Positions 27,316 through 62,934 of a DNA stretch of 64,000 nucleotides are shown here, piece by piece. This stretch comes from Isurus oxyrinchus (lineage: Eukaryota): positions 2,604,001-2,668,000 of the forward strand of contig JANJGN010000049.1 of assembly GCA_026770705.1 (NCBI GenBank). Direction: 5' to 3'. The position numbers and the translations under genes were made by a program. Under the pieces are notes generated by a model that saw nothing but the letters and a program-made list of their open reading frames with translations, searched no databases and was not told the origin of the DNA. Within the stretch, counting starts at the first letter, position 1. Each line of letters begins with the position of its first letter.

Positions 27316-28147
27316 GAATGATGTTGTTCAGTTTCTTTCTAAGTGAAGGAAATAATAAGCCAAGTGAAGTTCAGTTGTATTAATCTCAGGTCAGGGATCA
27401 TGAGATTTTCACCTTTACTATAACATGCAGTAATCATTACATGGTCGAGTTATGTGTCCCGTGTTTCTGTGTGTTGTTCTGATGATCACTGAACAGAATC
27501 ACAGAGGATAATGTGTCGATACTCATTATGTATGCTCAGATTTAATCACCTTTCCAAATGAATTCTGAGGACAGACAGACATTGCCTTGGAAACAGAATG
27601 GTCAGTGGGGCAATGCAGTCTAAAAAAATAAGCACAAAATAAAATAATCATCATTGCATGTTAGGGCTATTACAAGCCATAAGGCTATATTTCAGATCAA
27701 AGAAAATAACATGTTGAAACATGATTGGAAAATATCATTTATCATTGTGGAATTCATATAAAAATATTAAGAATGATGTGTTTTAGGCAAACACACACAC
27801 ACATCGGCACACAGACACACAAGCACATACATACACTGTTTTGTTGAGCCGGAGTTTAAAGACACCACGACGCTAACCTATGCCTTCAGCAAAATTCCTC
27901 CTTTCAATTAACATCGACAAATATGTACAATATACATTAACAGGATTTGAACCATTTCACTCTTTTGCTAATGTTACTTTGCGGAAGAAAAAGCCACAAT
28001 CATCTGGAACCCTTTCCATGTTTATCCTTTGGGACCTTCTGTAGAAGGAAATGACCTGGTTTATTACTCTAACTTGTTGCTAGAGACATTAACGTAAGGA
28101 AAAATAACTCATAACGACATTTTTAAATTATCAACATTGACAATCTT

Positions 28148-28166
28148 TCGTCACCAGGTGGCAGTG
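28148..28166 (+). promoter_or_regulatory. CTCF-like motif TCGTCACCAGGTGGCAGTG
   Basis: Matches the CCASYAGRKGGCRS core with one mismatch. Confidence 0.55.
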
Positions 28167-29734
28167 ATAACGCGATTGCTTCCAAGAAAAGATGCAGACA
28201 CTGCCACTGTTATTACTGTACCATAGCATGTCTATGTTTATATCACAGCAGACCTTCACTCAGTTATTACTAGTTTTGATTCTTCCACAGATCTTAGCAT
28301 CTCTGACAACGCCTACGTGCATTACCCATACCTAATTGCCCTGGAGAATATTTTGGTGAGATATCTTGGAACGCTGCAGTCTGTGTGGCGCAAATACAAC
28401 AACAGTGCTGGTGGGAATAGAGTTTAAGGATTTTAGTTCAGGAACAACGAAAGAAAGCAAAAACAACTCCAAGTCAGGATACTGTGTTTGACTTTGAGCG
28501 GCACTTGCAGGTGTAGGTTCTGCCATTCATCTGCTGTGCTGTCCTATGTAACAGAGCACTCAGGTTCTGAAGACGTTGTTGAGGGATTTAGCAGAATGAG
28601 ATGAGGGGCTTCTGTCATGCGGAAAAGTGAGAGAAACTTTCTCCTAGAGCAAAGAAAGTTATGAGATGTTTGGGAAAAAATGTTCAGGTTTCTGAAGAGC
28701 TTTTATAGGACGTATATGTCTCCGTCCGTAATATACTGGGCTCAGTTTCGGATAGTGCAATAAACTCTATGCCCATCCATACTTTACATAATGCCCTGTT
28801 TCAAATATCACAAAAGTATGTGTCGTTTATGTTTCACTCCTCCACGTCCCTATTTACAACGCACTAGACTCTTTATCAGTTATTACTACACTATATAATG
28901 CCTCCTTTTATATTGCAAGACCATCTCCGTGTTTATATTATACGAGGCCTATTATTCGTGCACCAGCCTGCTCATAGTCCACGAAGCCATATTGCTGTTT
29001 ATATTAAATAAGGCATTTTTTCTGTTACGAAGGCACTGGACATTCTGTTTATATTAAACTATGGCCATTCTCAGTTATTGTGGTACTGTAATAATTGTGT
29101 GTCAGATCAATAGACAGATGGATGAAGGAGACATATGTCTCATATTGTATAAATATATATATTTGTCTGTGTTGGTGGTGAATTTTTATATGGGAAAATA
29201 CGTTAAGCCTTGGTCACAGCCATCAGAAGCTGTGTGCAATGTCCAATTGCTCTTATATTAACTGGATAATATTTATGTTGAAAGGATGGTTCACGACTTG
29301 TAACAATCTCTGAAAGTTGAACTGGATTGGGGGGCAGAAGGGAAGGTGAGCCAGTGGCGGTGCAATTCATGCTGAATAGTGGAAATCTTTGTTGTGGCTA
29401 TTGTACAAAGTGTTTTATAGTTATGGAATGTTTTCCCTGCAGAATTTTACATTCTCGCTTTCTGTGGCTACTGGTTGTGTGATCAACCCTGAACATATGT
29501 ATATGCGTCTAATTGTATCTGTCATTTATGCTTATACAAAACACATCATTCCTGTTGTTTGCAAGCTATATCAACAAAGGTGAATCTGCTTCACCAGTTA
29601 CTTTTCTTACAATATTTAATTCCCTTTTATTAAAAATGCGTTGAAGTGTATTAATGCAAGTTTGTTTCTTGATTCATTTATGTCAACAACTATACGAAGG
29701 TCGGCATTTTCACAATAGGAGCAATGGCAGTCAT

Positions 29735-29753
29735 TGGCCACTAGATGACAGTG
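29735..29753 (+). promoter_or_regulatory. CTCF-like motif TGGCCACTAGATGACAGTG
   Basis: Core match with one mismatch, preceded by an upstream-motif-like GCAATGGCA. Confidence 0.55.
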
Positions 29754-29949
29754 CAAGACGGTTTGCCTAAATTGCACAAAGCCGGCGCTGCCTCAGGCAC
29801 GAGAAGGTGTCATGGTTTGTATTACATCAGACACTGCCTAAGGTTTTACTCATTTGGTATTGCCTGATTTGGAATAGTTGTTAAGTCCAGCATTTATTAT
29901 CCATTCCTGATTGCCCTTGAGAAATGGTGATACGCCACCTTCTTGAAAG

Positions 29950-32290
29950 GAACAAGGGTTTTAACATCTTTGAAACTGAATAAATGCCAAGGCCCGGTCA
30001 AGATGTATCCTAGCTTGTTAAGGTAAACAAAAGAAGAAATCGTCATCATTTTTTAATTCTTTGCAATCTTAGACACTGTGCGATAGGGCTAGAGTGCAGC
30101 CAACGTTGTACTCTTGTTCAAAATGGAGATAAGTATAGACTGAGTAATTACAGGAGAGTGAACATAATCTTGGTGCCGAGAGTTGCATCTACTTTTAGAA
30201 TAACAGTGATTAAGCAAAGCTGGACAGCACGACTTTGTTAAAAGCAGGGCGTGTCTGACTAACATGGTTACATTTTTTGAAGAGTTAATAGGGATTGTGG
30301 ATGGGTACCATGCATTCAATGTAGTCTACGTGGATTTTAGCATGATCAGGTACTACATGGCAGACTGGTCACGAAAATTAAAGCCAATGTGATCCAAGGC
30401 AAAGTGGCAAGCTAAATCCAAAATGGTTCAAAGCCAGGAAGCAAAGGGAAATGGACACTGGCGTTTCCGTAAAAGGAAATGGTATTCTCCAGGCCTAAGT
30501 AATAGGACACTTGCCTTTTGTTGCATATATCAAGTACTTGCATATGACTGAAAGCAGTCTGATTCAGAAGTTTTGAGACGATGCACAAATTCGCTGTGTG
30601 ATTAAGAATGAAGCAGAAAGCTGTAGACTGCAGGAAACCGACTAGTCAGGTGGACATACGAATAAAGATAATTGTGAGGTAGTACATTTGAAGAAGGCTA
30701 AACAGTAAGAGAATAAATAGCAAATGATACGACACTGAGAAGTATAGTGGGACTAAAGAATGGAGAGATTCCTGAATGTGCCTGGTAAGGTAGATAAGGT
30801 TATCAAGAATGCAGATGGGATTCTTGTTTCATTATCTGAGGCATAGAACATAAGAGTTGAGACCTTATTCTGGAGCCGTGTGAAATGCTCGTTAGGCCAG
30901 AGTTGGAGTATTGCGTACAGTTCTGGTCCACAGACTATTGGAAAGATATGAATGGGCTCGAGAAGTTACAGAGGAGATTTACGATGGCGTTGCCTCAACT
31001 GCGGGAGATTAGCTACTGGGGAGGATAGGATAGGCTCAGTTTGTTTACCTCTGAACAAAGGAGGCTGAGGGAAGACCTGACTGAAATATATAAATTATGA
31101 AGGATCTAGAGAGTCTGGATAGAGAAACAAATTTCTCTTGGATTGAGGGTCAATAATAAGGAGGACTATAAGAAATAGGAGGAGGTTTAGTCCATATAGC
31201 CCATGAAGCCTGCTCCACTGTTCAAGAACATCATAGCTGATCTGATTCAGGCCTCAGCTCCAGTTTCCCGCCTGCTTCCCAGAACCCTTGAACCCTATGT
31301 TGATCAGAAATCTGTCTAACTAAGCCATGAATATATTGAATGACCAGCCTCCACTGCTTCCTGGAGAAGTGCAGTGTCAAGACTAATGACTCTCTGAGTG
31401 AAGAAATTCCTCCTCATCTCTTTCTTAAATGGGACAACACTGCTTTTTAAACTGTGACCCGAGTTGCAGATTCCCCTGCGAAATGGAAACATGTTCTCAG
31501 CATTTGCTCTGTAAAACCCCATCAGAATCTTATAATATCACCTCGCATTCCTCTACTCTCCAGTAAGTAAAGATGCAATCTGTTCAACTCTTCTTCATAA
31601 GTCAGCCCCTTCCTCACAGTCATCAGTCGAGTGAACATCCTGTGAATTGATTCTGGTGCATGTATATCTCAAATTGCAGAGACCAAAATTGTACCCAATA
31701 TTCCAGGCACCTTCTCACCAATGGCAGTACCATTATAGCAAGAATGCCCTACTTTAAATGCCATTACCCTTTGCAATAGAAGCCATTATTCAATTTGCCT
31801 TCCTAATTCCTTGCTGCGCCTGCATGTTTTGTTTCATCGTTGTACAAAGACAGGCAGGTCTCTCTGCACTGAAGAATTCTGCAGCCTCTCAATTTAAATA
31901 AGATATTGCTTTTCGACTTATACTGCAAACTTAAAGACAACCCCATATTTTTCCAACCTTATAATCCATGTGCTGAATTTCAGCACAATCGCTAATCTTA
32001 CCTGTTTGTTGGAACTTGTTTTCCTTTCTATTTTTGTATCATCAGCAAATTTGTCTACAATATAGCAGACCCCTTCATCAAAGAAGAATAGGTTTTAGCA
32101 ATTGCTTTCACCCAGAAGGTGATGGAAATCTAAAACTCATGATGTGGATGTGTTGTAGAAACTTGAAGTGAAACAACCTCAAAGGTTACAGACTAAGAGC
32201 TAGAAAGTTGCACCAGGTTGGTTACCACTTGGTCACTGGGATGAAATCCCTCTTACGTGTTATAGGTTTTTATGAGCCTATGATTCATTT
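29950..32290. mobile_element. Nested CR1 remnants: plus-strand RT copy (about 29950-31165 and 32080-32290) interrupted by a minus-strand copy (about 31165-32080)
   Basis: ttggagtattgcgtacagttctggtc (LEYCVQFW) on the plus strand and MRRNFFTQRV on the minus strand. Confidence 0.75.
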
Positions 32291-32299
32291 CTGTTAGCT

Positions 32300-39180: not shown

Positions 39181-39289
39181 TAAGGTCAGCATAGATTTAT
39201 GCTGAGTATTTCCAGATTTTCTGGCCTTATCTTAGATTGAGAGCATTGGTAAAATTGTACAAAGCTTTGACCATTGTTTTCATTTGTTC

Positions 39290-39760: not shown

Positions 39761-39819
39761 CCATTACCAATGCCACATCTGAATGATCACCCACCTGACC
39801 ATGCTTCAAACCTGCAGTT

Positions 39820-39925: not shown

Positions 39926-41769
39926 CAGTAGTGGTTACTGTCCATATATGAGAGCCACTAATGCATGGCATTCGACATATTGCAGTTGCTATTTTGAAAT
40001 TATAGCATTTGGCTCTATGTATCTAAAGTTCAGGAGCAGACTCCAGTCTTACGCACATCAGTTTAGTTGTAAGGGATCAGTTGTAGTGCAGCCTGGTAAT
40101 GTGCCTGGCCCTTTTGTAACAGTGCTATTTATTTCCACTGGACCCATACAACAGTGGCAAGGATTCCTAAATAATCATTTCAAAACAGTGAGGCAGATGG
40201 TTTCCTGGAAGTTAAAGTTTGCAACTCACTATCTGCACAACAGGGATCTGGATTACTCTCCTCTTCATCGATAATTTAAGGATAGGTTTATCATAAATGG
40301 TCCAGCTTCTGAGGGAATTTTTGAAAAATTAGGGAGAAACTGTTCCACTGGCAGATGGATCAGTGATGCTGGGGCTTAGATTAATTCGATATTAATACAC
40401 TGATTATATTGCACCGTAAGACATTAATGATGTAACACTAAACTCTATCTCTATTTATATTGCATTAGGTTATGCATTAATTATATCTGAATTACTCTCT
40501 GTCCCTTTCAATTCGCCGCAAAGCCCTGCATCAATTGTTTGCACACTAGCTTTATCTCTGGTTGGTTTACACTTGGTATTGTCAGTGATTATTGCTTTAG
40601 GCCCTGCCTCAGTTTTATTAAATTGGGCCCAGTAGCAGTAATTCCTGTTCTGTAACAATTGGCATTAATCTAGTCCCTTTATCAGTAATCACTGCACTAG
40701 GCCCTGCCTCCATTTATATTAATACAGATCGGGTATCAGTAAACACTGTAATAGATCCTGCCTCAGTAAATATTAATACATACTTTGTTTCAGTAACCAC
40801 TGAAAGAAACCGTGTCTCAGTTTATATTAATACAGGCCCTGTATCAGCAATCAATGTAAAATCTCCTTCTCAGTTTATGTCAATCCATACATCGTAACAA
40901 TAATCACTGTAATAGACCCTTTCTCAATTGATAATAATCAATACCTTGTATCAGTATTCACTATAGTAGACCCTGTCTCAGTTAATATCAATCCAGACCT
41001 TGTATTAGTAATCACAGTAATAGCCTCTGATTATATAATCTAGACCATATATCAGTAATCACTGTAATAGACCCTGTCTCAGTTTATACTAATCCATAAT
41101 TTGTACCAGTATTCACTGCAATAGGTCCTGTCTTAGTTAATATTAATCGATGCCTTGTATAAGGAATCACTGTAATAGGTGCTATCTCAGTTTATATTAA
41201 TCCATAATTTGTATCAGTAATCACTGCAATAGACCCTGTCTCAGTTTGTATTAATCAATGCCATCTATCAGTAATCACTGTAATAGATCCTATCTCAGTT
41301 TATATTAATCCAGAAATTGTATGGGTAATTAATTTAATAGACCCAGTCTCAGGTTATATTAATCTAGACCCTGCATCAGTAATCATTCAAATAGACTCTG
41401 TCTCAGTTTATCTTAATCTAGACTCTGTATCAGAAATCACTGTAATAGAGCCTGTCTCCGTTTATCTTCCCCTAAACCTTGTATCAGTACTGGAATAGGC
41501 CCTGTTGCAGCTTATATTATTCTAGGACCTATATCAGTAATTACTCTAATAGACACTTCTCAGTTTAGATTAATATAGACGTTGTATCAGTAATCACTCT
41601 AATATATCCTGTCTCAGTTTATATTAATACAGATGGTTGTATTGGTAATTACTTTAATATACCCTCTCTTGGTTTATATTATTCCATACATTGTATCAGT
41701 ACGCACTGTAAAAGGCAATGTCTCAGTTTATATTAATCTAGACTCAGTATCATTAATCACTCTAGTAGA

Positions 41770-42446
41770 TGGGATCAGAACTGACAACGCAGGTGGATAA
41801 GGTAGTCAGGAAGGCATATAGCATGCTTGCCTTATTTGGCAGGGGTATTGAGTATAAAAGCTGGGAAGTCATGCTGCAGCTGTATAGAAACTTGGTTAGA
41901 CCGCACTTGGAATATTGCGTGCAATTCTGGTCGCCACATTACCAGAAGGATATAGAGGCATTGGAGATGGTGCAAAGGTTTACCAGGATGCTGCCTGGTC
42001 TGGACATTATTAGCTATGAGTAGAGGTTGGAGAATCTAGAGTGATGGAGATTGAGTGGCGACTTGATAGAAGTTTACAAAATTATGAGTGGCATGGGCAG
42101 AGTAGATAGTCAGAAGCTTTTTCCCAGAATGGAAGAGTCAATTACTAAGGAACATAGATTTAAGGTGAGAGGAGAAAACTATTGAGGAAATGTGTGGGGC
42201 AATTTTTTTACGCAGAGGGTAGTGAGTGTCTGGAATTCGCTGCCAGAGGAGGTTGTGGAAACAGGTACAATAGTGGTGTTTAAGAGGCAGCTTGACAAAT
42301 ACATGAATAGGATGGGAATAGAGGGATACGGACCCCGGAAGTGCAAAATGCTTCAGTTGACGGGCAATATGATCGGCACAGGCTTGGAGGGCCAAAGGGC
42401 CTGTTCCTGTGCTGTACCTTTCTTTGTTCTTTCTTCTTTGTTCTTT
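41770..42446 (+). mobile_element. 5'-truncated CR1 LINE inserted in the satellite, 5-bp TSD
   Basis: KAYSMLALFGRGIEYKSWEVMLQLYRNLVRPHLEYCVQFWSPHY peptide and a (TTCTTTG)n tail. GTAGA duplicated at 41765-41769 and 42447-42451. Confidence 0.92.
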
Positions 42447-45400
42447 GTAGACACTGCCTCAGTTGGTATTAATACATACATTGTATCAGTAAGCACTGAA
42501 AGAGACCCTGCCTCAGTTAATACTCATACAGACCTTGTATCTGTAATCACTGTATTGGACACTGTCTCAGTTTATATCAATCCATACGTTGTAATGGTAA
42601 TCATTGCAATAGACCCTGTCTCAGTTGATATGAATTAATACTTTGTATGAGTAAGCAGTGAAATAGGCCCTGACTCAGTTTATATTAAAACAGGCCCTGT
42701 CTCTCTAACAACTGGAATAGACCCTGTATCAGTTTATAGCAATCCAGGCCTTGTATTGGTAATCACTGTTAAAGACCCTGTCCCTGTTTATATTTACCTA
42801 GACAATTTATCAGTAATCAATGCAACAGACCCTGTCTCAGTTTATTTTAATCCATGCCATGTATCAGTAATCACTTTAAAAGACTCTGTCTCAGTTTATA
42901 TTAATATAGACCCAGTATCAATAATCATTCTAATAGAGCTTGTCTCAGTTTACATTAAACTAGACCCTGCATCAGAAATCACTGTAATAGACTCTGTCTC
43001 TGTTGATATTAATCAATACCTTGTATTAGTAATCACTGTAGTATACCCTGACTCAGTTCATATTAATACACACCTTGTGTTGGAAATCACTGTAATAGAC
43101 CCTGCCTCAGCTTATATTAATATAGACATTGTATTTTTTAATTAAAGTAACACACCCTGTCTCAGTTTATGTTAATCCATACATTATATCAGTAATCACT
43201 GTAATAGAGCCTGTCTCCATTTATCTTCCTCTAAACCCTGTATCAGTAGTACCTGTAACAGATCCTGTCACAGCTTACATTGTTCTAGTCCCTATATCAG
43301 TAATTACTCTAATAGACACTTTCTCAGCTTACATTAATACAGACCTTGTATCAGTAATCACTCTAATAGATCCTGTCTCAGTTTATATTAATACAGACAT
43401 TGTACTGGTAATTACTTTAATATAATCTGTCTCAGTTTATATTATTCCATACATTGTATCAGTACCCACTGTAAAAGGCAATGTCTCAGTTTCTAGTAAT
43501 ATAGACCCTGTATCAGTAATCACTGTAGTAGACCCTGTCTCAGTTTATATTATTCCATACATTTATCAGTAATCACTGTAAAATGTACTACCTCAGTTCA
43601 TATTAATCCAGACCCTGCATCACTAATCACAGTAATAGACCCTGTCTCACTTCATATTAATCTACACCCTGTGTCAGTTATCACCGTAATATACCCTGCC
43701 TCAGCTGATATGAATCCACACTTTGTATCAGTAATCACTTTAATAGACCATGTCTCAGTTTATATTAATCTAGACCCTGTATCAGTAATCACTCTAGGAG
43801 ACACTGCCTCAATTGGTATTAATACATACATTGCATCAATAAGCACTGAAAGAGACCCTGCCTCAGTTAATATTCATAGAGATCTTGTATCAGTAATCAC
43901 TGTATTAGACACTGTCTCAGTTTATATCAATCCATACATTGTAATGGTAGTCATTATAATAGACCCTGTCTCAGTTGATGTGAATTAATACCTTGTATCA
44001 GTAAGCAGTGAAATAGGCCCTGACTCAGTTTATATTAAAATAGGCCTTGTTTTGATAAGGACTGGAATAGACCCTGTCTCAGTTTTACCAATCCAGGCCT
44101 TGAATTGGTAATCACTGTAATAGAGCCCATCCCTGTTTAAATTAAGCTATACCATGTATCATTAATCAATGTAAAGACCACATATCTGTTTAAATTAACC
44201 TAGACCATTTCTCAACATTCAATGTAACAGACCCTGCCTCAGTTTATGTTAATTCATGCATGTAGCAGTAATCACTATAATAGACGCTGTCTCTGTTTAT
44301 TTTAATCCAGACTCTCTATCAGTAGTCACTGTAATAGGCCCTGTCTCAGTTGATATGGATCGAAACCTTGTATCAGGAGTCACTGAACAGTCCCTGTCTC
44401 CGTGAATATTAATACAGACATTGCATTGGTAATCACACTAATAGACCCTGGTCAGTTTATATTAATCTAGATCCAATATCAGTAATCATTCTAATAGCGC
44501 CTGTCTCAGTTTATATTAAACTAGACCCTGTATCAGTTATCACTGCAATAGACAGTGTCTCTGTTGATATTAATCAATACCTTGTATTAGCAATCACTGT
44601 AGTAGACCTTGACTCAGTTCCTATTAACACACACCTTGTCTCGGTATCAATGGAATAGACCCTGTCTCAGTTTATGTCAATCCAGAGCTTGTGTTGGAAA
44701 TTACTGTAATAGAACCTGTCTCTGTTTATATTAATCTACACAATGTATCAGTAATCACTGAAACAGAAACTGTCTCACATTATTTTTTCCCATACCATGT
44801 ATCAGTAATCACTGTAATAGATCCTGTCTCAATTTATATTAATATAGACATTGTATTGGTACTTACTGTAATAGACCCTGTCTCAGTTTATGTTAATCCA
44901 TACATTGTATCAGTAATCACGGTAATTTGCACTATCTATTTTTTATTAATCCATATGTTGCATCAGAAATCACTGTAATACTCCCAGTCAGAGGTTATAT
45001 TATTACAGGCCTTGTTACAGTAATCACTGCAATAAACTCTGTCTCCATTTATATTAATACAGATATTGTCTTGGTAATTACTGTAATAGACCTTGTCTTC
45101 ACTTATATCAATCTAGACCCAGTATCAGTCATCACTGTAATAGGCCCTGTCTCAGTGTATATTTATCCATACCTTCTATCAGTAATCTCTGTAATAGATC
45201 CTTTATTGGTTTAAATTAATCTAGGCTCTGTAACAGTAATCACTGTTATGGACCCTGTCTCAGTTTAAATTAATTTGGCCCGGCATCAGTAATCAATGTT
45301 ACAGATCCTGTCTCAGTTTATATTAATGCAGACATTGAATTGGTAATTACTGTAATAGACCCTGTCTCCATTCATATTAAGCCATACATTGTTTCAGTAA

Positions 45401-48400
45401 AAGACACTACCTCAATTTAGATCAAGCTAGACCCTGTGTCAGTAATTACCCTAACAGACCCTGCCTCAGTTAATTGAATCCATACCTTGTATCAGTAATC
45501 AGTGTAATAAATCATGTGTCAGTTTATACTAATCTACACCCTGTATCAGTAATCACTGTAATAGACCCTGCCTCAGTTGATATTAATCCATAGGTTGTAT
45601 CAGTAAACACTGAAAGAGACCCTGCCTCAATTTACATTAATACAGGCATTGTATCAGCAATCACTGTAATTGACACTGTCTCAGTTTATGTCAATCCATA
45701 CATTGTAACAGTAATCATTGTAATAGACAATGTCTCAGTTGATATTAATCAATACCTTGTATGAGTAATCACTGAAGTAGTCCCTGACTCAGTTTATATT
45801 AATAAAGACCTTGCCTTGGTAATGCCAGGAACAGACCCTCTCTCAGTTTGTATCAATCCAGGCCTTGTATTGGTAATCACTGTAATAGATCCTGTCCATG
45901 TTTATATTAATCTAGGCCATGTATCAATACTCAATGTAAGACCCCTGTCTCAGGTTATTTTAATCCATGCCATGTATCAGTAATCAGTGTAATAGAACCT
46001 GCCTATGTTATTGTTAATCCAGACCTGTATCAGTAATCGTTATTAAAGACCATGTCTCAGTTAATATGAATCCATACCTTGTATCAGTAATCACTTCCAT
46101 AAATGCTGTCTCATTTTTTACTAATCCATACACTGTATCAGGGTCACTTTATTGGACCCTGTCTCCATTTATATTATTACAAACATTGTATTGGTAATTA
46201 CTCTAATAGACCCTGTCTGAGTTTATATTAATCTAGGCCATGTAACAGTAATCACTGTAATAGACCCTGTCTCAGTTGATATTAATCAGTACCTTGTAAC
46301 AGTAATCAGTGGAGTAGACTCTGAATCAGTTCATATTAACACACAACTTGTTTCAGTAATCACTGTAATAGACCTTGTCCCAGTTTATATTAATCGATGG
46401 CTTGCATCAGTAATCAATGTAATAGACCCTATCTCACTTTATGTTAATTCAGACCTTCTATCGGCAATTACTGTAATAGATCCTGTCTCAGTTTATATTG
46501 ATACAGACATTGTATTGTTAATTACTGTAATAAACTCTGTCTCCATTTATATTAATCCATACATTATATCAGTAATCACTGTAAAAGACACTGTCTCAGT
46601 TTATATTCATCTAGATGCTGTTTCAGTAATCATCGTAATAGCCCCTGCCTCAGTTGATATGAATCCATACCTTGTATCTGTAATCACTGTAATAGACCTT
46701 GTCTCAGTTTATATTAATCTAGATTCTGTATCAGTAACTGCTGAAAGAGACCCTGCCTCAGTTTATATTAATGTGGCCTTGTGTCAGCAATCACCGTAAT
46801 AGTGTCTCAGTTGATGTGAATCAAATCCTTGTATGAGTAATCACTGAAGTAGACCCTGACTCAGTTTATATTAATACAGAACTTGTCTCAATAATGACTG
46901 GGATAGACCCTGTCTCATTTTATATCAAATGAGGCCTTGTATTGGTAATCATTGTCACAGATCCTGTCTAAGTTTATATTGATCTAGATCATGTATCAGT
47001 AATGAATGTAACAAATCCTGCCTCAGTTTATTTTAATCTATGCCATGTATCAATAATCACTGTAATAGACCTTGTCTTAGACTATATTAATCTAGATCCT
47101 GTATCAGTAATCACTGAAAGAGACCCTGCCTCCGTTTATATTAATATAGGCCTTGTGTCAGCAATCACTGTAATAGAATCTGTCTCAGTTGATATGAATC
47201 GATCACTTGTATCTAATCACTGTTATAGAATCTGTCTCAGTTTATATGAATCTATATCTTGTATCAGTAATCACTGTCATAACCCTATCTCATTTTTTAT
47301 GAATTCATGCCTTGTATCAGGAGTCAGTGTTACAGACCCTGTCTCCATTTATATTAATACAGGCATTGTATTGGTAATCACTCAAATAGACCCTTTCTCA
47401 GTTTATATTCATCTAGGCCCTGTATCACTAATCATTCTAATAGAGCCTGCCTCAGTTGATATTAATCTGGACCCTGTGTCACTCATCATTGTAGTAGGCC
47501 CTGACTCAGTTCATAATAATACACACCTTGTCTTGGTAATCACTGGAATAGACCCTGTCTCAGTTTATATCAATCCAGAGCTTGCGTTGGCAATAACTGT
47601 AATAGACCCTGTCTCAGTATATTATTACCCATTCCTTGTATCAGTAATCACTGGAATGGACTGTGTCTTAGTTCATATCAATGAAGACCTCACATCAGAA
47701 AACATTGTAATAGACCCTGTCTCAGTTTATATTAATCCATACCTTGTATCAGTAATCATTGAAATAGACCCTGTCTCCATTTATATTAATGCAGACATCA
47801 TATTGGTAGTTACTGTAATGGACCCTGTCTTCATTTACTTTAATCAAGACCCTGTAACAGTAATCACTGTGATAGACCCTATCTCCATTCATACTCATCT
47901 TTACCTTATATCAGTAATCTCTGCAATAGATGCTGTCTCAGTTTAAATTAATCTAGGCCCTGTCTCAGTAATCACTGCAATTGACCCTGTCTCAGTTTAT
48001 ATTAATACAGACATTGGGGGTATTGGTAATATCTGTAATTGACCCTGTCACAGTTTATATTAATCCATACATTGTGTCAGTAATCACTGTAATTGATCCT
48101 GTCTCAGTTTATATTATTCCATACATTGTGTCAGTAATCACTGTAATTGATCCTGTCTCAGTTTATATTAATCCATACATTGTGTCAGAAATCACTGTAA
48201 ATTATCCTGTCGCAGTTTATATTAATCCATACATTGTGTCAGTAATCACTGTAATTGATTCTGGTGCAGTTTATATTAATACAGACACTGGGGGTATTGT
48301 TAATTAGTCTAAAAGACACTGGCTCAGTTTATATTAATCTAGACCCTGTATCAGTAATCACTGTAATAGACTGTGTCTCAGTTAATATTAATCAATATTT

Positions 48401-48586
48401 TGCATCAGCAATCACTGCAGTAGACCCTCGTTCAGTTCTTATTAATACACACCTTATCTCGGTAATCACTGAAATTGACCCTGTCTCAGTTTATAGTAAT
48501 CCATACCTTTTGTTGGTATTCACTGTAATAGATCATGTCACTGTTTATATTAACCTAGATCATGTATCAGTAACGATTGTAACAGA

Positions 48587-48718
48587 GATAAAAACAAAAA
48601 AACTGCAGATGCTGGAAATTCAAAACAAAAACAGAATTACCTGGAAAAACTCAGCAGGTCTGGCAGCATCGGCAGAGAAGAAAAGAGTTGACGTTTCGAG
48701 TCCTCATGACCCTTCGAC
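48587..48718. mobile_element. Single-arm Penelope-like insertion in the satellite, 6-bp TSD
   Basis: AACAGA at 48581-48586 and 48719-48724. Same family as 48940-49144. Confidence 0.8.
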
Positions 48719-48939
48719 AACAGACCCTGTCTCAATTTATTATAACCCATACCATTTATCAGTAATCACTGTAAAAGACCCTGTCTCAGTTTGCATTAAT
48801 GCAGACCCTGCATCAGTAAATACTGTCGTAGGCCCTGTCTTCATTTATATTAATCTAGACCGTGTATCAGTAATCACGTAATAGACCCTGTCACAGTTTA
48901 TATTAATACAAACCTTATATCAGTAATCTCTGTAATAAA

Positions 48940-49144
48940 AACAAAAAACTGCAGATGCTGGAAATCCAAAACAAAAACAGAATTACCTGGAAAAACTCAG
49001 CAGGTCTGGCAGCATCAGCGGAGAAGAATAAAGTTGAGTGGGTTCTGTTGAAGGGTCATGAGGACTCGAAAGGTCAACTTTATTCTTCTCCGCTGATGTT
49101 GCCAGACCTGCTGAGTTTTTCCAGGTAATTCTGTTTTTGTTTTT
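48940..49144. mobile_element. Fold-back Penelope-like insertion, 14-bp TSD
   Basis: ATCTCTGTAATAAA at 48926-48939 and 49145-49158. 70-bp inverted arms at 48968-49037 and 49074-49143 with one mismatch. Confidence 0.88.
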
Positions 49145-49659
49145 ATCTCTGTAATAAATGCTGTATCAGTTTAAATTAATCTAGGCCCTATATCAGTAAT
49201 CACTGTAATAGACCCTGTGTCATTTTATATTTATACAAACACTGGGTATATTGGAAATTAATGTAAAAGACACTGTCTGAGTTTATATTAATCTAGACCC
49301 TGTATGAGTAATCACTGTAATAGACTCTGTCTCTGTTGATATTAATCGATACTTTGTATCAGTAATCACAGTAAAACACCTTGTCCCAGTTTACATTAAT
49401 GCAGACCCTGATCAGTAAGTACTTTTGTAGATCCTGTCTTCGATTATATTAATCTAGACCCAGTATCAGTAATCACTGTAATAGGCCCTGTCACAGTTTA
49501 TATTAATACATTTCTTATATCAGTAATCACCTCAATAGACACTGTCTCAGTTTAAATTAAACCAGGCCCTTTATCAGTAATCACCTTAATAGACGCTGTC
49601 TCAGTTTAAATTAATCTCGGCCCTATATCAGTAATCACTGTAATGGACCCTGTCTCCAC

Positions 49660-50440
49660 TCAATGAAAAGCCAATTTTTTCACATCCTTCAAAGAATGTG
49701 TCAGCAATGACTTGATGCTTAGTTTTCAATAAGTGCAAATGCAGGAGTCATCTGCTTACTGAAGCTCACTGAATGATGCTGGGAGAGTTTGGATTTGTAC
49801 TGAAGTTGGTGTAGCTTCAACAGATTCCCGTCCGTTCTGTCAATTATCTCCACGCCTGTGGGTAACCTGCTGGAGGTGAGGTGAACTATTACATAGAGAA
49901 AACAATGAGGAGAGGGTTGGTGCGATGACACAAGCCTGTCTGACCCCAGTTTTCACTGAGGTAGGGTCTGTACTGATCCTAGTGAGGATCAGGGCTTGCA
50001 ATCTATCTTGGAACAGATGGAGGATGGTGAAAAATTTCTGACTGCACCGAATTTGATGGGATACTCCATACGTCTTAATCGTCGGTAGAGGAAAAGGCAT
50101 TTGTGATGCGGAGCAAGGCCTTGTGCAGCTGTTGCTACTGCTCCTGGCATCACTCATGGATTTGCCACACAGTGAACACCATGGTGCCTCTCGATGGGAG
50201 AAAATGTCACTGCGCCTCTGTAAAGAGGTCATGGTAAGTGTGTGACTAAGGATGATGCTTGCAATAATCTTCCCCCTGGAAGAGAGCAAAGGGGCTCCTT
50301 TCAGGTTACTGCAATCGGACTTGTCTCCCTTCTTGAGTGGACTCATAATCAGAGCATTCCTGAGCTCCCTCGGCATGCAGTCCCCTTCACATGTGAGGGA
50401 TATGAGGTTGTACACCTATGTCAGGTCATGTATAGGTAAT
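49660..50440 (-). mobile_element. RTE-clade LINE RT fragment
   Basis: ELRNALIM..KKGDKSDCSN.KG..LLS..GKIIASI and SVKTGVRQACVIAPTL motifs. Confidence 0.8.
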
Positions 50441-52469
50441 GGCTGCACTAGATTTTGTTCTGTTCAGTTTAACCCAGGTCCTGTATCAGTAATCACAGAA
50501 CTTGACCCTCCCTCATTTTATATCAAATTACTGATTACATCAGTAATCACTGCACTTGCCCCTGCCCCAGTTTATATTCACAAAGGCTCTTAATCAGTAA
50601 TTCCTTCAGTAGGCATTGTCTCAGTTTACATTAATCTCTGCACAGTAACAGTCATCGCTGCACTAGGCACTGTCACAATTTATATAGATCTATGTCTTGT
50701 ATCGGTAATCATTGCACTTTGCCATGCCTCCATTCATTTAAATCTAAACCCTGTTACACTAATCACTGCTACTAGACCTCATCTCTGTTTATATTCATCC
50801 AGGGGCTTAATAAGTAATTCTTTCACTAGGCCCTGTTTCAATTGATATTAATCTACGGTCTGCATTGTCAATCAAAGCACGAGACTCTGCCTCAGTCGTT
50901 ACTGATCAAACCCTGTATCATCAATCACTGCCCCTAGGCACTGTATGAAATTATTTTCCTCCAGTTACTTTATATGTATTGGCTGCAGTGGATTCAGCCT
51001 CAGGTTTTCTGCTCTAGACAATGTCTCTGTTACTGTTACAGCCGAACCTACTTCATCTAATATTAAAATAGTCCATATCTTTATTTCTATTAAATTAGGC
51101 TAGTCTCAATTATCACCTTCAAGCCGAAGTGTTTTTTAAATTACATAAGGTTGTTCCTCGCTTAGACTGATCCAAACACTGTTTATGTTTACAACACACT
51201 AGGCCACAGCTCATTTAAGACTACACTAAACACCATTTCATAGACAGACAGATAGATAGATAGATAGATAGATAGGCAGGCTTCACGAAACACATTTAAT
51301 CTCCATCTCTCTCTCTGTCTCTATCTCTCTCTCTCTCTCAACAGCTCAGCCACTTGACCTCTTTTCTTTCCAAAACAGCAACTCACTCATGTAAACTCTC
51401 TCAGACACAACATAAATTATTTAACTCCGCTCTCACACAGAGGCCATTTAACTCTCACAATCTCTCTTGTCCCTTTCTCAGACAGCACATGATTAATTTA
51501 AAACATTCTTTACCCGAAGGGTCATCCATGAGGGATTTTTTATTTTTTATTTGTTTCTCCCTGTGATAATCCCCAATCCACCTCCACCTTCAGTAAATAT
51601 GCCACAAACAACAGAAACTCATTTGTTTTGTTCTTTTATATGGGAATGGAGGTGAATGCAATGTTAAAACTAGGAACAATCTATGCTGTGCTTCTTGATG
51701 CTGTCAATGTAAGTTTACCCTCACAGGCAGGAAGTCTGTTCATGGTGATAACATGAAACTGACGGCTGCTGTTTCATTCTCAGGTAACACTACTTCCTGT
51801 TTCTCTGCTGCTGGTTCCTAACCGCACATCTCACTTCTGAGCAGAAAATAAATCCAGGGGCCACAATCTGGTGGAAACATCTGTCAAGGCGGCCTATACC
51901 TGGCCACAGAGTCAGTGCAGAGTCACACAGATCACATTACGGTGAGATTTACAAATTGGTCTGCTGTGATCTATTTAGAGTTACCATTCCAGGACATAAC
52001 TGGAGCTGCCTGAGGATCAGTCACTGAACTTCTCCTGTTTTCCCAAGCCGGGAAATGACCGCTTGCTCCGTTATATTTTGGGCCATTTTTTCCATGTTAC
52101 CTGTTGGCTTTATTTCTCAACTTATCTCTCTCGCCATCTCTTCCTTCTTTCTCGTTTCCCTCATTTAGTCTTATGCTCTGTCTGTCAGTTCCGGCATCTC
52201 TCTCCATCTCTGCATCCCTTTCATACACATGTTCAAAATCATTATTGGTTGGATGGAGTAAATAAAGAGACCCCGGTTCAGCTGGCACAACAATCACTGA
52301 TCAGAGATGACAGATTCAGATTAATTCAACTGGATGGTGAGAAGAGGAGGACTGATTTTTTTTTAACACCGTGAGTTGTCATGAGCTGGAATGAACAACC
52401 TGAAATGATAGCAGAAGCGAATTCAACTTTGGAAATGGGATACATACGTCACAGCTTAAAAGCTGCTGG

Positions 52470-55760: not shown

Positions 55761-56290
55761 TGGAACATACAGCATAGAAGCAGAATGTGCAGTGCGAAAA
55801 GGATTAGTGCAGATGTAGTGGAAAGAGTGGAAGTAACACTCAATTGTTGCAGAAACAAAAGTGTGAAAATTCCCTGGAGATCAAGGAATGTTTCAACCCT
55901 TTCCATCCCTCTGAGTAATAAACCATAGAATTACAGTTATATTAACCTCACAACAGGTACAGTTTCAATTTGTCCATTTTGCTTCCACAAATGATCACAG
56001 ACTCACTGTATAGACAGGAAATTCTGTGAGATGCTGATGTGATCATTTGCCAATAAATTGCCCTTATTCTCGAGGTGATGTAATCCACATTCCATCTGAT
56101 CACCTGAGACAGATAACTCCAGCTGGGAAATGACCTGGACAGTCTGCAATCACTTTATAAACAAGAGCACACAGCAGAATGGTTATTAATAATTAGTTAC
56201 AATATTAAACGATCTTCAGTTGAAATACATGAATTGTTCTTTTTGGGGTGTTAACACATTCACTGAAGTTGCAGAAAGACCGTGAGGTGT

Positions 56291-56326
<36 letters not shown>

Positions 56327-56799
56327 TGGAGAGTGAGAGAGAGAGAGAGAAACGGACAGACAGGCAAACAGACGACAGTGACTTATGCGCTGCATCAGAT
56401 AGAGGGGCGAGCGACAGATTGGTAATTGGTACCTTCATCTTAGTAACGATGTATGCCATGACTTTCTATACAATGGCACAGAGTAGAAAATTGGACCAAT
56501 ATTTTTTTTTCTGCATTAAAAGATCGGCAGCCACAATTTGAAGAAGAGAACATGAAATGCCAAAAAATGGTGAAAGTAAATTATTTATATTCGAGGAATT
56601 ACAGTGCAAGTGTGAAGAATGATTCTCTTCATGAAAACAAACAGAACAGGTGGCATCTGATACATGATACTGTCGACTATAATGAAACTGAATATCAGGT
56701 GCTGAATTGGCCGCCGATCTCATGCCACCCATCTTTGGCCAAGGCCAGGGACCATTTTCTAGCTCATTACCTTTATTTATATTATCTCTCTATTTCACA

Positions 56800-58260
56800 T
56801 AGACACAGCCTAGCGCAGTAATAACTCAGGCTGGATTAGCTTAATTTAAGGTATGAAACTGTTTTCTGAAGTAATAATAGAGATCAGGACTAGTGCAATA
56901 TAAACTGAAAAGGGGTCCAGTTTAGCATTAAAAAGGCAGAGTCTAGTGCAATAATAACTGCGACTGCATCTTCTGTAACTTGTGAGACATCAGAGATAGG
57001 GCTAACGTAATATAAGCAGAGACATGGAGTAGTGCAGCAACAACTAAAACAAAGCTTAGTGCTGTGTATAGGGACCATTAGTCCAGCGCAGTAAGAACTG
57101 GGACTTTGCCGTGTGTAACACAAAAAGAGACATGGTATAGTTCCAGAACAACTGAGATGGGGCCAAGCACTGATATAACTGAGGCAGGAACTGGTGTAAT
57201 ATTATGATAGGATCCATTTGGATATAAACCGAGACAGGGTCAGGTGCAGCAATACTGAGACAGGGCCGAGTGCACCAAATATTGATACAACATCTTCAAT
57301 AATTGAAAAGGAAACTGGGTCAAGTTTAATAATTACTGAAACAAGGTCCAGCCTGTTAGTAATAGACGTGGCCTTGTGTAAAATAATCACAGGCATGGTC
57401 TGCACTGCATACAAAAACACAGGGTCTATTTCTATATTAACACATGCAAGGAAACGTCCAGCGGAATGTCAGCAGAGACATGACCTTGACTGACATGAAC
57501 AGAGAGATGATCTAGTGTAACATAAATAGAAGTGCGATCTCGTGGATTATAAAGTGAGGCAGTGCTGAGTGCAGGAATAGATGAGGCAGTAGCGTGTGTA
57601 ATTTGAGCAGAGACGTGGACTGACGAAGTAATAAAGGAGACAGAATCTAGTGTAAAGAAACTGACACAGGGTCTAGTGCAGTTTAACTTGATAAAGGACC
57701 TTGTGCAATATCAATTAAAATAAGACCTAGTGCAATCACTCCCAGCCAAGTACCTAGATTAATACCAATAGAAACCTGGACAAGTGCGGCAATGAGAGAG
57801 ACATGGTATAGTACAATAGTAACAGAGAAGGGACATTGTGTGATATAAACGGAAATTTATATGCGCAGCATTAACTGTGAAATTGTCAAGTTCAATATAA
57901 ACGTGGCAGAGTAAAAACTGAGACACAGCCTCGTGTGATACAACCATGAGCATGTTCTGGTTTAGTATTAAAAGAGACAGGGCCTAGTTCAGTAACAATT
58001 GAGACATGACCTAATGTCATGTTCGCCGAGAAATGATTCAGTGCAGTCATAACTGAGAGGAGGTTTGATATAATACAAAGAGGGCCCGGAGCAGGTATAT
58101 CAACAACAGAGATTGGGCTGAGTAAGGAAACAAATAGACATGACGTGCTGTAAGATCATCAGAAATATGACCCTGTGATATGATCAGAGACGGAGTCTAG
58201 TTTAATGTGAACAGAGATAGCGTCCATTTCGGTAACAATTGAGAGAATGCCTGTTTAATG
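56800..58260 (-). repeat. Inverted degenerate 27-bp satellite tract
   Basis: ACTGAGACAGGG(T/C)CTAGTGCA units. Confidence 0.8.
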
Positions 58261-58276
58261 TAAAGTACCACGGCTT

Positions 58277-58295
58277 CACTGCCATCTGCTGGACA
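58277..58295 (-). promoter_or_regulatory. CTCF-like motif TGTCCAGCAGATGGCAGTG
   Basis: Full match to the CCASYAGRKGGCRS core. Confidence 0.65.
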
Positions 58296-58559
58296 CACGT
58301 TGCTATTATCAATGCCGTTTAAATGCCAATTTCAGTTAATGCTTGTGAGGTCATTGATAAAAATATAAATCATTGAATCATGGAATGCTTGCAGCACAGA
58401 AAGAGGCCTATAAAGCTTAGGAGATTTTGAGATATAAAACTATTTTAGTTAAAATATCTACGTTCCGAATTCTTGATTTATAATAATGGAGTATTCAACT
58501 GCGCCTGACCGAACAAGTTCCCAATAAATGGTATTTATGGATCAAGTAAAATTTATTAA

Positions 58560-61060: not shown

Positions 61061-61759
61061 TTGTGGATGTGCTCTTATTTGGAAAGAAACAAAATTAACC
61101 TCTTTCATTGGCTTGGGGTGAGGCTCATTTGGTGTCACTTCATCTCTGTGTCTAAAGCCATGAACACTGAAGACAAATCTGTATCTCTTATTCCCTGGGC
61201 TCCGGGATGTATATTCAATTGTGAGCAAATAATGCACCCTTGTAAATATAGAGCTATTGCAAACAATGTTACTTTCTTCTTATCAACAATACAACTTATC
61301 GTATATAGCCACCTCAACACTTGTTTTAGCACCTTACCAGAGATACAATACATTATTAGTAAATGTTAATAACACCTTCCTACAGTTATGTCAAGACAAA
61401 GGCTGCTCTCCAATACAGATCTTCTGCTTTACGGATATGGTTCGTCAATTGAACCAAGTCATAGATCGTTTAGTTTTAAGATGAGGTGTCGTGTTAAGTT
61501 AAAGCTGCTGAATTCACCTTTTTTGTTTATCCCTTTGAAACTGACAAAGAATCCCTCAATTGCACAATTCAAATAAAACAAATATAATTAATTGAACCTA
61601 AGCTTCTCTGTTCCTTAAAGTAATTAAGGCAATAACACCGGTTCCTGCTCCCAGCCTAAAAGCTATATAGCCTCAATAGCAGAACCTCAAACTGAACTGT
61701 AAAGATAAGATAAATATTATTTCGTATCAACATAAAACCATATAATATTCGTAGTATTA

Positions 61760-62380
61760 TCACTACTTAAAGGCCATTTCGTTTGTTCTTACTGTTCTTG
61801 TCTTGTGAAGGATTAATTCATCTCCTGCCACCCTCTGTCTGCTCCCCGTAGGCCAGATGTTTTCCTCCTTTTCATATAATTATCCAATCCCATTTTGAAT
61901 GACTCGATTGTCACGGCCTCCACCACATCCTCACGCAGTCCATTCAAGGTTCTATCCACTCGCTGCATAAATAAAAGCATTTCCTCATGTCGCTAACATT
62001 TATTTTCCCAATTACCTTAAATCTGTGCCCCTTGGTTCTCGATCCTTCCACCAATTGGACCGTTTTCTACTTTCAACTCTGTCCAGACCCATCTAGATTT
62101 TGAATACATCTATAAATTCTGCCTCAACCTTTTCTCCTCTATGGAAAGCAGTACCAATTCCTCTAATCTGCCAGTTTAACTGAAGGTCTCCATCCCTGGA
62201 ACCATTCTCGTGAATCTTTCCTACTCTCTCACTGATACTTTCACACTTTTCCTAAAGTGTGGTGCCCAGAACTAGACGCAATGCTCATGTTGAGACTTTA
62301 ACAGTGTTCGAAAAACTCTTTGATTTTGAACTTTGTGCCCCAATTTATAAAGCCTCAGATACCATATGATTTATTATCCA
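61760..62380 (-). mobile_element. CR1 LINE 3' remnant
   Basis: gtgtggtgcccagaactagacgcaatgctc is the reverse of an EHCVxFWAPH motif. Confidence 0.7.
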
Positions 62381-62389
62381 GCCTGTCAG

Positions 62390-62850
62390 CACTAACAACA
62401 GAGACAGGGCATCGTGTTATATAAACAGAACATGGACTTGTGCAGCATTCACTGTGACCTCCTCTAGCTTAATATAAACATGGCAGGGTCAACTCAAGTA
62501 ATAACTGAGGGAAAGCCTCAGTGTAATGCAAACAGGCACATGTTCCAGTTTAGTACAAAGGGAGACATTGTACAAGGTATTATCAATTGGGACATGAAGT
62601 TTTGTCATGTTAGCTGAGGCATGGTTCCGTGCAGTAATAACTGAGATGTCTCACAGAAGAGAAAGAGGGCTTTGGTTGAGCAGAGATTGGGCCGAATACA
62701 GAAATAAGTGAGACATAGCCTCCTCTAATATAATCAACGACACGACCTAGTGTTATTTAAACAGGCACGGGGTCTAGTTTGATATGAGTAGAGACAGGGC
62801 CATTGCAGTAACCATCGAGAAATGCCGGCCTCACGCAATTTGAACAATCA
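62390..62850 (-). repeat. Inverted degenerate 27-bp satellite tract, paralogous to about 57800-58270
   Basis: Shared atgttc..gtttagta...gagaca...caattg.gacatga...tgtcatgtt.gc.gag string. Confidence 0.75.
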
Positions 62851-62856
62851 CGGTTT

Positions 62857-62875
62857 CGGTTCCATCTGCTGGACA
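62857..62875 (-). promoter_or_regulatory. CTCF-like motif TGTCCAGCAGATGGAACCG
   Basis: Paralog of 58277-58295, preceded on the minus strand by the upstream-motif-like TGCAATAGCA. Confidence 0.5.
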
Positions 62876-62934
62876 AATCTTGCTATTGCAGATGCTGTGG
62901 AAATGCTGATTTAATTTACTGTTTCTGACAGCAA

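Follow-up and report, generated by a model that had tools for sequence, protein, structure and literature searches.

A CTCF-like repeat module at IgM miniclusters and elsewhere in IgH-bearing chromosome regions of the shark Isurus oxyrinchus

Introduction

CTCF-bearing repeats include D4Z4, DXZ4 and rodent B2 SINEs, and tDNAs and CTCF sites occur together in tDNA-plus-CTCF insulators. A region-restricted repeat linked to CTCF and cohesin is described for Firre, whose R0 repeat binds CTCF without a canonical motif and at a single locus (PMC4820808). In the clustered protocadherins, CTCF sites (CSE/eCBS) with fixed distance and orientation, often in tandem pairs, are co-duplicated with members of the gene family; they lie beside promoters and form loops with a single common enhancer (PMC7811963). 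Closest in gene content is mouse Igh, where oriented CTCF motifs lie up- and downstream of the IgH unit as IGCR1 CBE1/CBE2, VH CBEs and 3'Igh CBEs, and where upstream-facing CBE1 is described as the dominant impediment to scanning (PMC10293834). In skate, TAD borders are reported to carry inward-facing CTCF motifs (PMC10115646).

Why the many IgH miniclusters of sharks rearrange alone, with only one expressed, is treated as an open question (PMC2435157), and the IgW, IgNAR and light-chain cluster types are likewise reported to rearrange within the cluster (PMC5192425). We found no prior report on CTCF sites at shark Ig clusters in the literature searched, which did not extend to most subscription journals. 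Here we analyze a 64-kb stretch of the Isurus oxyrinchus genome (the window), in which an initial annotation had proposed a boundary module of CTCF site and satellite that could insulate Ig clusters and help explain their autonomy.

Results

The window contains an Ig cluster on the minus strand at ~4.1-23.3 kb. It consists of a leader and V exon (22853..23324) with a V-set domain and a 23-bp-spacer RSS at 22852, two D segments and a J with their RSSs (21590..22460; heptamers at 22418, 22025 and 21637), four C-mu-type exons with a secretory tail (9749..16174), the third of which (10634-10927) holds an in-frame TAA, and an IgM transmembrane exon region (4113..4370) that is 88% identical to that of a second IgM family. 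V, both D and J span no more than 1.6 kb, and clusters lie 80-200 kb apart. The V resembles an IgW V (59%) more than it does the V of conventional IgM (about 44-52%), and a protein search with it returned one shark match (82%) without a class name. An assignment to IgW from the V was nevertheless rejected, as the cluster has four C-mu-type exons and both its last C exon (90%) and its transmembrane exon (88%) match a conventional IgM cluster, whereas a true IgW has many more domains, which are ~40% identical. From 14976 to 28146 there was no CTCF match of 8 bits or more, and hence no divergent CBE pair of the IGCR1 type between V and D.

We scanned the window with a CTCF matrix reconstructed after JASPAR MA0139.1 (maximum 29.5 bits). 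The forward motifs at 28148 and 29735 and the reverse motifs at 58277 and 62857 that had been annotated were all recovered, with cores at 28148-28166, 29735-29753, 58277-58295 and 62857-62875 scoring 19.9, 19.7, 22.1 and 19.6 bits, and they were the only matches of at least 12 bits in the window. Against these four, 100 dinucleotide shuffles of the window gave a mean of 0.08 matches of at least 18 bits (maximum 2), while 1.24 Mb of fetched real DNA gave 18, of which 10 were module copies, a non-module background of ~0.4 per 64 kb. The flanks of the four motifs are homologous to each other, as the annotation had stated, with 61-66% identity and a common CATTT lead and AAT(A/G)GCA element; therefore the four motifs are not independent events. 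Further copies, absent from that annotation, stand at -58 (+, with a degenerate core), 81609 (-) and 97260 (+) in window-extended coordinates.

In its full form the module comprises a ~60-bp lead, a CTCF upstream-type motif, a variable 6-bp spacer, the CTCF core and an ordered 27-bp tract. Two V-proximal modules (28086..28280 and 29673..29860, both +) are directed away from V, and two distal modules (56900..58357 and 62390..62937, both -) are directed toward it. In the last of these the upstream motif TGCAATAGC (62882-62890) precedes the core by six bases, as it does in most classes of copies; its eighth letter is G where the optimum is C, the measured CTCF upstream-motif optimum being TGCAATCCC / TGCAATACCC at 5-6 nt from the core (PMC10287918). 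The upstream-type motif is weaker at 28148, 29735 and 58277. Thus the module combines both marks of a CTCF site, a strong core and a TGCAAT-type upstream motif 5-6 bp before it. The class of the 28148 module is near-palindromic, and most of its paralogues score 16 bits on the opposite strand.

That each motif heads a satellite tract was borne out at the distal modules, with 30 unit matches within 1.4 kb of 58277, in an ordered 1.4-kb tract, and eight within 0.5 kb of 62857, where ~0.5 kb of units is interrupted by a LINE piece; 28148 and 29735 are followed by stubs of two to three units (two matches each, +49 to +103). The orientations of the proposed convergent pairs also held, but the pairs bracket a block of satellite and LINE pieces upstream of V (29.8-58.2 kb), and the IgM cluster lies outside them. 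This block includes an array of a 54-bp (2 x 27) satellite (40664..50601, +) from the unit family of the 27-bp tracts, for which nhmmer detected no head; of ten exact matches to its units in other places, nine are found 7-18 kb upstream of an IgM V. A fifth, downstream module has its 27-bp tract at 1..1330 (+) and its head just left of the window. The core of this copy (-58 to -40) is degenerate, at 4.3 bits, compared to a median of 13.7 and up to 18.0 in paralogues; it is also decayed in at least five of these. The tRNA-Ser gene that precedes the module in paralogues is internally deleted here.

The position of the module at IgM clusters was stereotyped. V-proximal copies occurred at 10/10 clusters of the window's family (family A) and at 19/20 of the second family, all facing away from V. 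Genome-wide, 27/27 and 17/20 pattern matches in the two families fell within 10 kb upstream of V; together, 44/47 stood 2-6 kb upstream of an IgM V and were directed away from it. The two families are divergent, with V differing at half of their residues, and yet the V-proximal position is common to both. The downstream copies face the cluster, and at least 27 of them are found 9-10 kb away from its last C exon. In family A the distal and downstream copies enclose V-D-J-C, while the four sites of the window do not, and the window's downstream core is decayed. These observations, together with the strongest sequence constraint being that of family A and with orphan upstream blocks lying 0.2-0.5 Mb from broken C-mu remnants, would suit a dedicated IgM-cluster boundary, kept to confine RAG and enhancer reach to one minicluster, whose far copies are remnants of lost clusters. 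We regard this reading as rather unlikely. A downstream copy was present 2-12 kb from the last C exon in 0/20 clusters of the second family, 17/50 distal copies had no V within 120 kb, and V-D-D-J within 1.6 kb in clusters so far apart could suffice for autonomy (PMC2435157, PMC5192425).

The distribution of the module away from IgM also argues against such a boundary. Of 67 family-wide matches, 33 were more than 120 kb, and 28 more than 200 kb, from any IgH last-C exon found, a distance that refers to IgH C exons and not to light-chain clusters. Three far sites (200 kb read) held zinc-finger genes, LINE arrays and tRNA-Ser and no Ig domain, with cores of 11-19 bits. The module was absent from the one IgW (120 kb read) and one IgNAR locus (80 kb) and from four light-chain/TCR-like V genes (10 kb each), where a very diverged copy could escape. 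A satellite signal on both sides of the IgW cluster turned out, on reading, to come from different tandem repeats; the 14-mer satellite matrix gives false positives, and low satellite counts were therefore not used. A non-module CTCF match of 23.9 bits lies near IgW in retroelement-like sequence. By exact patterns, which leave room for older copies elsewhere, all 67 family-wide matches lie on 23 contigs that carry IgH C exons, and every pattern match shares its contig or chromosome with an IgH V or C match, C589 and C675, both small contigs, being the exceptions. By these patterns the module is thus multicopy yet limited to part of the genome, as a Firre-type local repeat is, and the proposed link to Ig clusters stands as confinement to IgH-bearing regions rather than genome-wide scatter, though not as proximity to IgH for about half of the matches. 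It was neither present at all cluster types nor found only at Ig clusters.

We then consider whether the motif is conserved beyond its surroundings. From 161 collected heads, 24 exact duplicates were dropped, leaving 137 distinct heads in nine classes; the conservation sets contained BLAST- or position-fetched copies only, and 30 loci found by motif pattern (L061-L090) were left out. Consistent with the annotation, which had the motif better preserved than its flanks, the high-information core columns showed 19 changes versus 38.0 expected from near flanks (Poisson P 5e-4). Within the nine classes, the low-information core columns changed at the flank rate (51 versus 50.6 expected), and the upstream motif showed 23 changes versus 38.4 (P 0.005). 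A direction-free count gave 15/71 for the core and 288/656 for the flanks (column permutation P 5e-4; upstream motif P 0.003), and a base-matched permutation for core constraint gave P 5e-5. The size of effect was weaker: the mean absolute score change was 3.13 versus 3.70 +- 0.37 (P 0.058), a direction-free test used in place of the directional one (-1.5 versus -3.2), which is inflated by uncertain polarity. Among contigs of four public runs from three organisms, variation hit 0/19 core, 0/9 upstream-motif, 4/6 spacer and 18/102 flank positions, variants that may be inherited paralogue differences. The 24 sequencing runs on record included no ChIP or ATAC library, and no RNA run carrying the module was among those listed, which has no bearing on its expression. 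The copies are related and gene conversion among them is possible, and near-identical duplicates occur in the assembly (261 bp at two further places are 100% identical), so the conservation tests overstate independence.

These numbers bear on the possibility that the module is a neutral passenger, an ancestral repeat with a chance CTCF-like word that was duplicated along with the surrounding block, its apparent conservation reflecting uneven rates, conversion and the picking of good matches. The spacer had 53 changes versus 28 expected (137 heads, within nine classes), and since it changes faster than the flanks, rates are indeed uneven along the element. Furthermore, the CATTT lead varies no more than the core does, cores have decayed to 4-8 bits in several copies of the downstream and V-proximal kinds, placement next to V follows automatically from duplication of whole clusters, and the effect-size test is marginal. 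However, the deficit falls on the high-information columns while the interleaved low-information columns change like the flanks, the counts were made within classes and on copies fetched independently of the motif pattern, the base-matched test is strong, and in the flanks changes are commoner, rather than rarer, at G and C columns than at A and T columns. We therefore judge neutrality unlikely; from their sequence, the sites seem to function as CTCF sites and to be maintained by purifying selection.

Constraint differed among classes. It was strongest in family A (core 5/40 versus 136/365 in flanks), where the variable core places carry CTCF-tolerated alternatives, and core position 9 (A) is G throughout the tRNA-Ser/downstream lineage. 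In the second IgM family the core was unconstrained (9/16 versus 100/151) and the upstream motif constrained (3/16); V-proximal cores there have a median of 13.1 bits. In the V-proximal class of this family the upstream element had 0 changes versus 8.8 expected, while the core changed at the flank rate and its 3' half was lost. Such a pattern would be expected if the conserved letters served another protein, for example if the palindrome TGCAATTGCA of this class, a putative bZIP-type factor site, belonged to a B-cell enhancer. The constraint on the CTCF core itself in family A, with tolerated alternatives where it varies, makes this explanation highly improbable for the module. Copies in the class labelled non-Ig, which is mixed, with 4/16 lying ~50-60 kb upstream of a V, showed no visibly faster core decay (1/8 versus 25/70, small numbers), a further point against a dedicated IgM boundary.

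The module has three founder contexts: one is V-proximal, one is distal and follows the 3' end of a LINE, and one follows a tRNA-Ser gene. Two of the three are common to both IgM families. The upstream flanks are common to the two families (z 15-31; z 17 between the flank of the 28086 module and that of the second family's V-proximal module), and collinear homology extends over more than 4 kb, which points to block duplication. An alternative is that the heads are transposon ends with subterminal repeats, of foldback, Helitron or TIR type, and that convergent pairs represent left and right ends, with Ig clusters carried between them as cargo. Homology between founder classes does begin sharply ~60 bp before the core, inward heads with inward repeats resemble foldback ends, and several copies have an opposite-strand repeat patch 1.5-3 kb inside. 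We nonetheless hold this to be very unlikely: classes have outer flanks in common, in three contexts, rather than unique insertion sites, pairwise alignments to +9 kb gave no common inner end and homology over more than 4 kb, no target-site duplication was seen by eye at 5' edges, facing heads differ by 35-40%, and the module is confined to a few regions. The module has likely spread as entire blocks underwent segmental duplication and inversion in IgH-bearing, gene-family-rich chromosome regions.

Discussion

Our analysis identifies the four motifs as members of a single local repeat family whose module probably binds CTCF. The reading to which we lean, on the strength of sequence comparison, is that this module was spread by block duplication and has an architectural role in the region as a whole, not one specific to Ig, as it would also serve neighbouring zinc-finger, GPCR and tRNA arrays. 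Outward-facing V-proximal sites would pair with inward-facing distal sites as cohesin loop anchors; such loops would separate the IgM promoter from the satellite block that lies upstream and would stall extrusion, along with any scanning by RAG, 4-7 kb beyond V. In family A, further loops between distal sites and the downstream copy would encircle the whole cluster. The module may thus insulate IgM clusters. It fails as a general explanation of why V(D)J joining is autonomous in each cluster, because it is absent at the sampled IgW, IgNAR and light-chain/TCR-like loci, although these also rearrange within the cluster. Of the proposal that a boundary module helps explain autonomy, stereotyped position and orientation at IgM and sequence constraint remain; the window's sites do not enclose the cluster, and other cluster types lack them.

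Candidate architectural sites at IgM clusters can now be named, with fixed position, direction and signs of selection. Clusters with a decayed downstream site, a family without a downstream site and orphan blocks without Ig provide natural controls, which together with the candidate sites make the loop-domain idea directly testable. CTCF ChIP-seq from bamboo shark and catshark embryos is reported to have been published.

The module can be set beside the systems described above. As in CTCF-bearing repeats and tDNA-plus-CTCF insulators, a repeat multiplies a CTCF motif, and one class lies directly behind a tRNA-Ser gene, but there is one site per tract rather than per unit, and the spread looks like block duplication rather than retrotransposition. 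Like Firre R0, the module is region-restricted; unlike it, it has a core and upstream motif, occurs in the IgH regions of several chromosomes, and its CTCF binding is predicted. Fixed distance and orientation, co-duplication and frequent tandem pairs recall the protocadherin sites, whereas the shark sites are located 4-7 and 30-60 kb upstream, precede a tract of 27-bp units and are found at a distance from the genes as well.

The parallel with mouse Igh is in layout. In both, oriented motifs lie up- and downstream of the IgH unit, with an upstream-facing site beyond the D-J centre, further sites facing it and, in family A only, a downstream site facing back, as described for mouse (PMC10293834). 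Outward V-proximal sites would correspond to IGCR1 CBE1, inward distal sites to VH CBEs and inward downstream sites to 3'CBEs, a correspondence that belongs to the reading as a dedicated IgM boundary. It is conceivable, if doubtful, that the ancestral shark IgM minicluster had a repeat-borne CTCF layout equivalent to that of mouse Igh, with a tRNA-linked anchor downstream, as a precursor of IGCR1 and the 3'CBEs. If true, this layout, copied with every cluster, would make each one a separate loop domain and so restrict V(D)J joining to the cluster and activation to one cluster at a time. Unlike mouse Igh, the shark site lies upstream of a single V rather than between V and D, CBE2 has no clear counterpart, and the candidate sites are all copies of one repeat, repeated for each minicluster.

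CTCF-like modules upstream of an IgM cluster

Four CTCF-like cores were present in the window, at 28148(+), 29735(+), 58277(-) and 62857(-), and scored 19.6-22.1 bits on a CTCF matrix with the counts of JASPAR MA0139.1, whereas 100 dinucleotide shuffles of the window gave a mean of 0.08 matches of at least 18 bits. The initial annotation had described homologous motifs, each heading a 27-bp satellite tract, in convergent pairs. The cores are indeed copies of one another; however, 58277 and 62857 head tracts (30 and 8 unit matches) while only a stub of some two units follows each of 28148 and 29735, and the pairs, although convergent, bracket a stretch of satellite and LINE sequence on the upstream side of V and leave the IgH cluster outside. 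Seven module copies were found in the 264 kb around the window, at -58(+), 28148(+), 29735(+), 58277(-), 62857(-), 81609(-) and 97260(+) when window numbering is continued past its ends. The order along the gene is a far-upstream outward site, three inward sites, a 54-bp array, two outward sites, the cluster and a downstream inward site; in the window cluster the two outward V-proximal sites lie 5 and 6.6 kb before V, and the downstream core has decayed (4.3 bits). The most V-proximal core class (28148; L211-L220) is near-palindromic in paralogues, its opposite strand reaching about 16 bits in 9/10 clusters, and could, judging by its sequence, act in both directions.

The window (G000:C49:2604001-2668000; genome size 4.98 Gb) contains a single IgH minicluster, on the minus strand, with leader and V (22853-23324), two D, J, four constant exons, secretory tail and TM exon, and about six copies of a 38-bp tandem repeat between constant exons 1 and 2 (15471-15712). 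The constant part is C-mu-like, with 90% (last exon), 88% (TM) and 66% (first exon) identity to a conventional four-domain cluster on contig C26, and V shares about 44-52% identity with the V genes of C26 and 59-63% with that of an IgW-type cluster with many domains. Clusters of the window's kind form family A (about 47 V matches on C20, C38, C42, C49 and small contigs), a large cluster family with germline pairing of an IgW-like V with C-mu exons; conventional IgM clusters form the second family (C26, 24-40 Mb, and small contigs). The window V matches a catshark protein at 82% identity. Because the third C-mu exon (10634-10927, minus) has an in-frame TAA, the window cluster is probably a pseudogene. 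The stop coincides in this cluster with the decayed downstream core and an internally deleted neighbouring tRNA-Ser, and several family-A copies carry frameshifts. The contig has further, near-100% copies of the window cluster and of its distal module (G000:C49:652642-715844 and 849349), which would stem either from very recent duplication or from duplication in the assembly. An IgW-type cluster at G000:C88:514378-530699 (L238-L240) has about ten constant exons, with one two-exon pair almost exactly repeated.

Module anatomy and spread

Across the founder classes, shared homology starts about 60 bp ahead of the core. A CATTT lead is followed by TGCAATAGC or one of its variants; a spacer of 6 bp separates this element from the core, behind which lies an ordered tract. 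The 27-bp units of the tract have diverged and align unit for unit between copies over 0.7-1.4 kb. For the CTCF upstream site, PMC10287918 gives a measured optimum of TGCAATCCC or TGCAATACCC, 5-6 nt from the core. The outer flanks fall into three contexts: V-proximal, where 28148 and the V-proximal copy of the second family have a flank in common (z 17); distal, where 62857, 81609 and 97260 share a LINE-like 3' end with the distal copy of the second family (z 15-64); and behind a tRNA-Ser gene. The LINE-like end is presumably CR1. Homology between copies extends beyond 4 kb, and no common inner end was found as it continued past that distance. Because of the shared flank contexts and this long homology without a common end, the spread fits block duplication and inversion rather than transposition, and transposon ends as the origin of the heads are very improbable.

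tRNA-Ser(TGA) directly precedes the module in 11/13 downstream-class loci scanned and 5/7 of a related class, about 100-180 bp before the core (L113-L140, L154-L161), a tDNA-plus-CTCF arrangement. The V-proximal copies of the second family (L191-L210) carry the palindrome TGCAATTGCA as their upstream element; it shows 0 changes where 8.8 were expected, and the core next to it has drifted in its 3' half.

Conservation of core and upstream motif

Conservation was measured on BLAST-found or position-fetched loci only (161 heads, 137 distinct). On a flank-built tree, the eight high-information core columns had a mean of 3.25 changes, compared to about 6 in near flanks. Within nine classes, changes were reduced in these columns (19 vs 38.0 expected) and in the upstream motif (23 vs 38.4), matched expectation in low-information core columns (51 vs 50.6) and exceeded it in the spacer (53 vs 28.2). 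A direction-free allele count gave 15/71 for the high-information core and 18/72 for the upstream motif against 288/656 for flanks (P 5e-4 and 0.003), but the size of score changes was only weakly reduced (P 0.058), all P values of these tests being optimistic because of relatedness among heads, conversion and duplicate contigs. Thus, the motif is better preserved than its surroundings, as had been proposed. Core constraint was clear in family A (5/40 vs 136/365), a mixed tRNA-Ser class gave 1/8 vs 25/70, and no core constraint was detected in the second family (9/16 vs 100/151; upstream motif 3/16). In contigs of four public runs from three organisms, variable places numbered 0/28 in core plus upstream motif, 4/6 in the spacer and 18/102 in the flank; these variants may be shared paralogue differences.

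That the motif is a neutral passenger of block duplication is improbable, the deficit of changes falling on high-information columns while low-information core columns change at the flank rate. That the conserved letters serve another factor, for which the second family's upstream motif could speak, is highly unlikely, the CTCF core being the constrained part in family-A classes.

Placement at IgM clusters and elsewhere

V-proximal copies always face away from V, with two per cluster in 10/10 family-A clusters and at least one in 19/20 second-family clusters. Genome-wide patterns for the two V-proximal classes matched within 10 kb upstream of V in 27/27 and 17/20 cases, and 9/10 matches of an exact satellite pattern lay upstream of a second-family V at a distance of no more than 25 kb. 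The exact 28-letter pattern of the 62857 class had 50 matches. In 30 of them the match shared its strand with a family-A V and lay 30-60 kb upstream of it; the distance was 60-120 kb in 3, and in 17 no family-A V occurred within 120 kb. Since only exact patterns were used, and only 40 of about 300 candidates were scored in the DNA searches, older copies elsewhere could be missed.

A family-wide 21-letter pattern had 67 matches on 23 contigs, every one of which carried IgH constant exons. Of these matches, 27 lay within 15 kb of such an exon, 7 at 15-120 kb and 33 beyond 120 kb, distances that are upper bounds because 150/236 exon candidates were scored and the mapping covered IgH rather than light-chain clusters. 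No Ig domain was found at three far sites (200 kb read), where the sequence consisted of LINE arrays or contained C2H2 zinc-finger genes. At C26:5410000-5530000 (L093-L104) the IgM upstream block, with its modules, 54-bp array and GPCR gene, is present as two 66-kb copies in tandem; their cores reach 24.8 bits, and neither has an adjacent IgH gene. C26:5584087-5584437 contains a broken V-set exon. Intronless rhodopsin-family GPCR genes occur among the distal copies, at window-extended 73, 90, 108, 128 and 160 kb. At G000:C26:2035000-2070000 (L174-L177), LINE-like units of 7.4 kb, about five in number, are arrayed head to tail, and three of them have an open frame of 1303 residues.

Searches of 120 kb around an IgW cluster, 80 kb around an IgNAR cluster and 10 kb for each of four V genes that look light-chain/TCR-like by sequence found no module, and there was no downstream module 2-12 kb downstream of 20/20 second-family clusters. 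A dedicated IgM boundary, which the V-proximal placement would favour and the distant copies would not, is unlikely; a working regional CTCF module is the reading that we give slightly more than half our weight.

Proposed function and known systems

The module combines motif, spacing, constraint, placement, orientation and regional confinement. CTCF may bind its cores, and cohesin loops between outward V-proximal and inward distal sites would then separate the IgM promoter from the satellite block. A loop between distal and downstream sites could enclose the cluster in family A, and 81609 and 97260 may form a divergent, border-like pair round a GPCR gene. Within-cluster rearrangement is reported (PMC5192425 and PMC2435157) for every type of elasmobranch Ig; the segments lie 250-500 bp from one another and the clusters 82 to >200 kb. 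The initial annotation had proposed that the module could help explain such autonomy. Because it was not found at the non-IgM samples, is incomplete in the second IgM family and lies far from IgH in about half of family-wide matches, it is no more than a single contributor in the case of IgM.

Skate chromatin is reported to show signatures of loop extrusion (PMC10115646). In mouse Igh, upstream-facing CBE1 is described as the main impediment to RAG scanning (PMC10293834). The layout of the module resembles that of the Igh sites, apart from lacking a pair between V and D.
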